From: Escherichia phage vB_EcoM_Shinka
Sequence record: MZ502379.1
Reading direction: 5' to 3' (one strand)
Length of the DNA stretch: 64,000 bases
Below, in pieces: positions 28,112 through 28,556 of this stretch (position 1 is its first letter; every line of letters starts with the position of its first letter). The notes under the pieces were generated by a model. It searched no databases. It saw nothing but the letters and a program-made list of their open reading frames with translations, and was not told where the DNA came from. Position numbers and translations under genes: made by a program.

Positions 28112-28309
28112 TTAGTAAATTGATTTACCAAAGTATTTGTACCAAGTCGGACGTTGAGCAATTTTTTCATCTAAGCGTGCTTGACTTATCGCAATGGACG
28201 CTTCGGACGGGACATAATTTCCTCCAAGTAGTTGATGAATGTATAGTATCAAAACCCTTGGAGGAAGTAAACAACTATTTTTCTGAAGCGCCTGAAATAT
28301 ATTTTTCAA
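28112..28309 (-). pseudogene. denV: denV (endonuclease V, pyrimidine-dimer glycosylase) 3' remnant
   Basis: Last ~35 codons ([34 protein letters not shown]) match the recalled T4 DenV C-terminus; N-terminal two thirds absent, frame opens at TTG after a stop, upstream space occupied by another gene. Confidence 0.55.
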
Positions 28310-28556
28310 GACGTTGTTTCATCAGCGAGCCGTTCTTAGCGATTTCTTCCGGTTTATCGCACATACGCAACAAGGCTTCAAGCTTAACGATATCACTGGT
28401 GCGCTCAAATTTGCGAGTATCTATCTTACTAGCAAGTTCAGAAATACGTGCTAATAGACTTTCAGCTTCAACCAAAGCTGCACCTAGCTTAGTTGCAAAT
28501 GTGTCAGTAGCTTCGTTAAGAATAGATTCTGATAAAAATTCACTATATGTTTTCAT
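28275..28556 (-). CDS. Internal-protein-like capsid-targeted protein (about 93 aa)
   Basis: From the internal ATG the protein begins [16 protein letters not shown] (capsid-targeting-sequence pattern with LSE cleavage site); ATGA overlap with the lysozyme stop. Confidence 0.55.

Follow-up and report, generated by a model that had tools for sequence, protein, structure and literature searches.

A predicted Ip5-family internal head protein gene overlapping lysozyme gene e in a Tequatrovirus

The short minus-strand ORF that overlaps the lysozyme gene e in the stretch of Escherichia phage vB_EcoM_Shinka DNA analysed here (MZ502379.1; 64,000 nucleotides, referred to as the window) is in our main reading a functional Ip5-family internal head protein gene of a Tequatrovirus, whose product would be synthesized late through coupling to e, packaged into the head, processed and injected; we put the probability of this reading at about 0.7. 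Based on homology and gene order, we assign the gene with high confidence to the already catalogued internal head protein genes of the Ip5 family, here in its usual RB69-type context.

A sequence-only reading had described this ATG-started ORF of 93 codons with the correct coordinates and sequence, and as an internal-protein-type gene that overlaps e and carries a capsid targeting leader with gp21-type cleavage motifs, and this description stands. It had also taken the product for a novel cargo, and here our data disagree, since the gene belongs to the Ip5 family of T2, T6, RB15, RB70 and RB51 and of RB69 (RB69ORF127c) and is already annotated in RefSeq. The features of the region are collected in Table 1.

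Table 1. Features around the ip5-like gene, in window coordinates
Feature	Position	Strand	Details
ipIII internal protein gene, 192 aa	27205..27783	-	phrog_5341, E 1e-117; 94% nt identity to T4 ipIII
ipII-like internal protein gene, 86 aa	27845..28105	-	phrog_2667 internal head protein
denV 3′ remnant, last ~33 codons + stop	28112..28212	-	phrog_1183, profile positions 100-138 of 139
denV deletion junction, one retained AATTATG repeat copy including the denV ATG	28213..28219	-	alignment
T4 early-promoter-type cassette (GTTTAC ... GATACTAT), serves denV	28243..28272	-	alignment
ip5-like internal head protein gene	28275..28556	-	93 codons + TAG; ORF, PHROG profile, homologues, dN/dS
Capsid-targeting-type leader, codons 1-15	28512..28556	-	[LI]xE motifs ending at E10 and E15
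Lysozyme gene e	28553..29041	-	TGA shared with the ip5-like ATG, ATGA at 28553-28556
Two TATAAATA late-promoter matches within a hairpin	29037..29077	-	at 29055-29062 and 29068-29075
nudE	29079..29534	-	

Family, distribution and constraint of the gene

The product matches the PHROG 3499 profile ‘internal head protein’ over residues 1-87 (E 1.2e-46), and neither Pfam nor NCBIfam holds a family for it. Its identity is 92% to RB69ORF127c (RB69p127, NP_861817), 89% to the ip5 product of VR20, 52% to RB51 Ip5 (tblastn E 2e-17) and 48% to T2 Ip5. In an alignment of the window, VR20, RB51 and T2 proteins the homology extends over the full length, with the conserved blocks KLG.AL.EAE.L..RI.EL and EIAKNGS.MK.RLE. 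The names already in use agree with this: the e-linked copy of VR20 (Gaprivervirus) is called ip5, several RefSeq records label the gene ‘internal head protein’, and the RB51 record carries the remark ‘similar to Ip5 from T6, T2, RB15 and RB70 and RB69ORF127c’. Full-length homology to named Ip5 proteins, together with the place of the gene in a polymorphic internal-protein locus, assigns it to the Ip5 family.

A tblastn search with the protein returned 496 phage records, 490 of them with a coverage of at least 80%. Identity was at least 95% in 232 of the 496, and the sampled rows of these overlie or adjoin the lysozyme gene; about 258 others have 47-51% identity and represent Ip5 genes encoded at the ipI locus, among them those of T2, RB51 and wV7. 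A word-indexed protein search retrieved near-identical relatives only. When 1.84 billion cluster representatives were scanned exhaustively with HMMER, only 4 clusters were found, all from one phage family, and hence the Ip5-like family is narrow.

Orthologues of the RB69p127 type adjoin e in Tequatrovirus, Mosigvirus and Gaprivervirus. RB69p127 itself has the same 93 aa, the same place between e and denV and the same 4-nt overlap with e as the window gene; residues 13-93 are identical and the DNA is 98% identical, whereas a compensated frameshift alters leader residues 5-12 of the RB69 copy. The Ip5 proteins of T2, T6, RB51 and Bas37 (bas37_0261) fall in the same PHROG family at 48-52% full-length identity to the window protein and share with it the MKT[YF].EF leader, an [LI]xE motif at position 13-15 and the conserved blocks. 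In contrast to the window gene with its overlap with e, the T2-type gene follows 57B at the ipI locus and has an early-promoter cassette of its own in front, and its product is 8-9 residues shorter at the C-terminus, with a pI of 9.3 as against 5.5 for the unprocessed window protein. With the T4 internal proteins, the window protein has in common a capsid targeting (CTS) leader with a gp21 motif, small size, an internal-protein locus and a non-essential accessory nature, but sequence similarity is limited to the leader. Bas37_0260 of the HIDEN-SEQ preprint is likewise a small CTS protein of a T-even phage and its gene adjoins an Ip5 gene; its mature sequence, however, is unrelated to the window protein, and its McrBC target is experimentally established.

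The first 32 nt of the ip5-like leader DNA are 75% identical to the start of ipIII, and the ORF might on this ground be a non-coding by-product, i.e. a duplicated ipIII 5′ end that continues into an accidental ORF, a scenario that the sequence-only reading had itself raised. Homology over the whole length to Ip5 proteins from other loci and other genera excludes it, as does a dN/dS of 0.14 against VR20 (dS 0.50, dN 0.068); the ORF is moreover intact in every relative examined, and nearly all tblastn records match it at a coverage of at least 80%. On such comparative data we regard the by-product reading as already refuted and give it practically no weight. The dN/dS value shows that the gene is translated and constrained.

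Two further ORFs in this region were rejected as candidates. The 154-aa antisense ORF at 28120-28584 (+) is not a gene and is broken in VR20, RB69 and RB51, and the 65-aa ORF with a TTG start at 28112-28309 is the denV frame read back over the deletion described below into the 3′ end of the ip5-like gene.

A mosaic locus and the denV deletion

T-even phages have two highly variable internal-protein loci, with more than 30 internal-protein variants known by 2007 (PMC12373910; PMC2839356); in the accounts that these papers give of Repoila et al. 1994, at least 10 internal-protein ORFs were recognised by their leader. The locus e-denV-ipII/ipIII, in which the ip5-like gene lies, is one of the two. 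The window belongs to a Tequatrovirus (T4-like), and its closest records, G2133, PTE-Eco15, G4498 and Lutter, are at least 99% identical. In T4 the gene order is e, ipIII, ipII, denV, and the common arrangement among the relatives of the window is e, ip5-like gene, intact denV, ipII′.

Homology between T4 and the window ends at 28558, in the last codons of e. From there, the block of ip5-like gene, denV and ipII′ is 96.5-98% identical to RB69 (window 27754-28556 compared), and e itself has 91% nucleotide identity to T4 and 83% to RB69. Since an RB69-like block is thus placed between T4-like flanks (e and ipIII), the locus is by alignment a mosaic with an RB69-type arrangement. The gene next to denV has 96.6% nucleotide identity to RB69p125 versus 65% to T4 ipII; by these values the window ‘ipII’ is a homologue of RB69p125 and not of T4 IpII. 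In Lutter, a 1-nt insertion interrupts this RB69p125-type ipII, which is annotated there as two ORFs (Lutter segment 3312-3567). The similarity of the ip5-like block indicates a probable recent cassette exchange between genera, Tequatrovirus and Mosigvirus; RB69 has been reported as not recombining with T4-type phages.

The early-promoter-type cassette directly 3′ of the ip5-like gene is similar to those on either side of ip5 in T2 and RB51, and Lutter has an annotated promoter at the corresponding position. Early-promoter cassettes associated with internal-protein genes have been proposed as mediators of the shuffling of these genes (PMC2839356).

The sequence-only reading was right that a denV remnant follows downstream, as the phrog_1183 match confirms (Table 1), but its view that the ip5-like gene replaces most of denV does not hold, because full-length denV stands beside the same gene in Lutter, RB69, VR20 and most relatives, and the truncated denV of the window is the exception. 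Compared with Lutter and RB69, 310 bp are missing from the window, starting right after the denV ATG. This deletion, which lies downstream of the ip5-like gene, removed the 5′ three quarters of denV, and its end points are direct repeats of AATTATG; the 13-nt sequences that hold them, AATTATGACTCGT and AATTATGTCCCGT, agree at 11 positions. A frame-shifted ORF of 9 codons now begins at the native denV ATG, and the remnant is not translatable from its own start. The truncation of denV is therefore best described from the alignments as an independent 310-bp deletion unrelated to the ip5-like gene.

In an evenly spaced sample of full-coverage rows the deletion is common to about 4 of 49 (JM17, G8, Phaginator and FL23), and it is present in 10 of the best 40 rows of matching records. 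About 8% of the sampled relatives are thus natural denV-null phages, presumably UV-sensitive. G4498 has a denV deletion of the same size with another junction base (ATGACCCGT versus ATGTCCCGT; compared segments: window 28112-28219 (-), Lutter segment 2886-3299 and G4498 segment ~2880-2895). The one-base difference suggests that such deletions are recurrent or differently resolved; probably this repeat either underwent a second event or held a heteroduplex that was resolved in another way.

Expression, leader and predicted maturation

Two TATAAATA late-promoter matches just upstream of e are the only ones near the ip5-like gene, which has no match to this motif of its own. Both are located in a hairpin that sequesters the e ribosome-binding site (-14.9 kcal/mol, z -4.2). 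In T4, as McPheeters et al. reportedly found in 1986, early read-through transcripts of e are untranslatable through the hairpin, whereas those made late begin within it and are translated. The hairpin with its late promoters is conserved in the window and matches this classical translational control. A sigma-70-type promoter of the ip5-like gene inside e was considered and rejected, as promoter-like matches there are no commoner than in shuffles.

The ip5-like ATG (28556-28554) overlaps the TGA of e (28555-28553), and the ATGA overlap of the sequence-only reading is thereby confirmed; a 4-nt overlap with e is also annotated in Lutter, G4498 and RB69. Upstream of the ip5-like start, only a weak GGAAAG is found at ~10 nt, and there is no notable local structure. 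Thus, re-initiation of ribosomes ending at the e stop codon would be the simplest reading of how the gene is translated. We infer this coupling from the geometry of the two genes only, and it would confine synthesis to the late period. In the mechanism that we propose, the gene would be read from late transcripts begun at the two promoters upstream of e, and, since its ATG overlaps the e stop codon, ribosomes finishing e would probably translate it, so that synthesis would be restricted to the period of prohead assembly.

Six-frame translation of the window yields four matches to the leader pattern M[KR]x[YF]xxF[LIVM]xE and 300 shuffles yield none, and hence the resemblance of the ip5-like leader is beyond chance. 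All four matches are the first residues of minus-strand ORFs, namely ipIII, the ipII-like gene, the ip5-like gene and a 157-aa ORF at 32986-33459. Mullaney and Black mapped the IPIII leader by amber suppression; as presented in PMC9026906, their work assigns targeting to residues 4 and 7 and processing to residues 8 and 10. The ip5-like protein, which starts MKTYSEF, has Y4, F7, L8 and E10 and so retains the residues mapped in IPIII. The sequence-only reading had given the leader MKTYQEFIAEA as shared by IPI, IPII and IPIII, which is correct for IPII and IPIII, but IPI of this phage reads MKTFKEFTSTTTPVSTITE↓A.

Two gp21-type [LI]xE motifs, LSE10 and LNE15, are present in the leader region. 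The LSE site named by the sequence-only reading does exist at E10 but is not the conserved one, being absent in VR20 and RB69. The motif at E15 (LNE or ITE) is invariant in the four aligned sequences of the window, VR20, RB51 and T2 and is also retained in RB69; it is missing from two more distant cluster representatives, in which a motif is found at 8-11. Because E15 is kept where LSE10 is lost, LNE↓A is the more likely conserved cleavage site.

The leader of RB69p127 (RB69 segment 1235-1280, compared with window 28512-28556) carries the compensated frameshift as a -1 and then a +1 change and reads MKTYMNFYQNLSLNEA; Y4, F7 and LNE15 are retained, and E6, L8 and E10 are lost. This leader may be an artefact of sequencing; otherwise it is a natural experiment that shows which residues are needed. 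Given that residues 5-12 are scrambled in RB69, the canonical leader may not be strictly required.

In our proposed mechanism, the leader would target the protein to the prohead scaffolding core through Y4 and F7, and the prohead protease gp21 would cut after E15 (LNE↓A) and/or E10 (LSE↓S). Cleavage would leave a predicted all-helical protein of ~78 residues and 8.6 kDa, which would be packaged together with the DNA and enter the next host by injection. From the leader and its motifs we have good confidence in the predicted packaging and processing; our literature search turned up neither virion proteomics nor injection data for this protein or any other Ip5, and no virion proteomics of RB69 or Mosigvirus.

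The tight ATGA linkage to e in several genera and the missing late promoter, together with the scrambled leader residues of RB69, might instead be explained by a vestigial leader and a protein that is not packaged but acts in the producing cell, e.g. as a partner or regulator of lysozyme e. However, the Ip5 genes of T2, RB51 and Bas37 are located at the ipI locus, far from e and behind their own cassettes, so linkage to e is not a trait of the family; the RB69 variant still has Y4, F7 and LNE15, and the leader is under constraint. We hold such a role in the producing cell to be very improbable and keep to packaging as the preferred reading.

The precursor is acidic (pI 5.5, 10.4 kDa) and the mature form near neutral, in contrast to the strongly basic IPIII, which speaks against our main reading; a mature form starting at A16 would have a pI of 8.1 and 8.6 kDa, and one starting at S11 a pI of 6.3 and 9.2 kDa. 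An AlphaFold model from an 8-sequence alignment predicts helices at 4-44, 53-66 and 69-90 (mean pLDDT 75.5). IPI* has two beta sheets, with helices on their N- and C-terminal sides (PMC3012670), whereas the model of the window protein is all-helical and thus lies outside the IPI* structural family. With this model, Foldseek found nothing below E 3 in the PDB and only a VR26 internal head protein in BFVD, and a PDB sequence search with the protein was empty. As modelled, the fold gives no functional clue.

Further [LI]xE motifs, LVE30 and ISE40, are invariant in the window, VR20, RB51 and T2, and gp21 requires very little else for cleavage (PMC9026906). Hence gp21 could also cut here and convert the product, like the scaffold proteins, into small internal peptides, and not into a folded injected effector. 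Both motifs are, however, inside the long predicted helix (residues 4-44, pLDDT about 80), where access is unlikely; moreover, conservation is highest in the C-terminal two thirds (EIAKNGS.MK.RLE), suggesting that they form a folded functional domain, and purifying selection acts over the whole gene. We therefore consider fragmentation improbable, and cleavage in the leader region remains our preferred reading.

Other CTS proteins are encoded in the window. The 157-aa ORF (-) begins MKSYAQFLNEAVLNEASS, and its leader, with Y4, F7, L8, E10 and LNE15, is very like that of the ip5-like protein. It adjoins the tRNA cluster and lies ~37 nt downstream of a late-promoter match TATAAATA at 33496-33503 (-). 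Its profile is phrog_2280 ‘unknown function’; homologues occur in 511 phage records, and all 30 sampled annotations read ‘hypothetical protein’. The Bas37 homologue, bas37_0244, is non-essential. From its leader the 157-aa ORF is a candidate internal protein, labelled as such in 0 of the 30 sampled annotations. A T4-type ipI is found at 35710-35997 (-), at the ipI locus after 57B; it encodes IPI, the inhibitor of GmrSD, whose leader has 19 residues and ends in ITE↓A. The phage thus carries at least 4 CTS proteins, or 5 if the 157-aa ORF is counted.

Possible function as an injected inhibitor

T4 Ip1, Ip2 and Ip3 each inhibit a different GmrSD enzyme without cross-protection (PMC12373910). IPIII is needed on ECOR17, and its leaderless form works when expressed in the host (PMC9391042). 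The CTS-bearing Bas37_0260 inhibits McrBC (HIDEN-SEQ preprint, bioRxiv 10.1101/2025.11.20.689424). By analogy with these proteins, an injected anti-defence role of the ip5-like protein would be a reasonable expectation for its class. Our literature search returned no functional assignment of Ip5, the term ‘Ip5’ leading mostly to papers on inositol phosphate.

Transposon insertion data of the same preprint bear on the family. Bas37 is phage KarlGJung (MZ501089), and we verified that its gene bas37_0261, annotated as ‘ipI’, is a T2-type Ip5 (segment 8364-8621). On the uropathogenic strain CFT073, the mean for insertions in bas37_0261 fell from 263.4 on K-12 BW25113 to 61.0, i.e. about 4-fold (log2FC -2.09; preprint Extended Data Table 7), with an adjusted p given as 0.00000, which made it 1 of 14 significant genes (10.1101/2025.11.20.689424). 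On CFE299 and on CFE303 the log2FC was in each case -0.01 and not significant, and on K-12 the gene is non-essential, with 18 of 18 TA sites hit (10.1101/2025.11.20.689424). The depletion on CFT073 is not discussed by the preprint authors in the main text. The upstream gene bas37_0262 is also depleted on CFT073 (-1.56; 10.1101/2025.11.20.689424), and hence a polar or regional effect is possible. Moreover, bas37_0261 is only 48% identical to the window protein, and the CFT073 signal concerns a paralogue; we take it as suggestive, host-specific evidence for a role of Ip5 at the level of the family. CFT073 encodes a GmrSD homologue, c5421 (PMC4437046).

A packaged protein might also have a purely structural or physical role in the head, as core filler or in DNA charge balance, with no specific host target. 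T4 heads hold ~1000 internal-protein molecules in their DNA, with lysines contacting the DNA phosphates (PMC3012670), T2-type Ip5 is basic, and Ip5 is dispensable on K-12, all of which would fit such a role. Nevertheless, the window protein is near neutral and not basic, specific anti-restriction targets are established for all four CTS proteins of this size that have been characterised, and the rapid turnover and shuffling of internal-protein genes fits an arms race; a structural role also does not predict the depletion of Ip5 insertions on CFT073 and not on two other hosts. Accordingly, a purely structural role appears unlikely to us, though less so than fragmentation.

On the preferred reading of an injected protein, our confidence in a host-specific anti-restriction role, drawn by analogy, is moderate, and in any particular target it is low. 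A more specific proposal, which we put forward tentatively and judge somewhat less probable than even, is that the e-linked Ip5-type protein would be injected and, as an all-helical protein, would inhibit one particular modification-dependent nuclease, of the GmrSD family or of another kind, in wild or uropathogenic E. coli, with a specificity unlike those of T2-type Ip5 and of Ip1-3. If this is true, Ip5 proteins would be a structurally new class of type IV restriction inhibitors, and their function would explain the exchange of the cassette between Tequatrovirus and Mosigvirus at 96-98% nucleotide identity.

The window gene in itself matters little, as the family was described in 1994 and RefSeq already carries the label internal head protein. 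Four other CTS-bearing proteins have been shown to be inhibitors of type IV restriction, and in the search for the target of the Ip5 type the CFT073-specific depletion of Ip5 mutants is a concrete starting point. The e-linked form of Ip5 is present in more than 230 sequenced coliphages, many of them candidates for phage therapy, and knowing the defence that it neutralises would help the prediction of host range.
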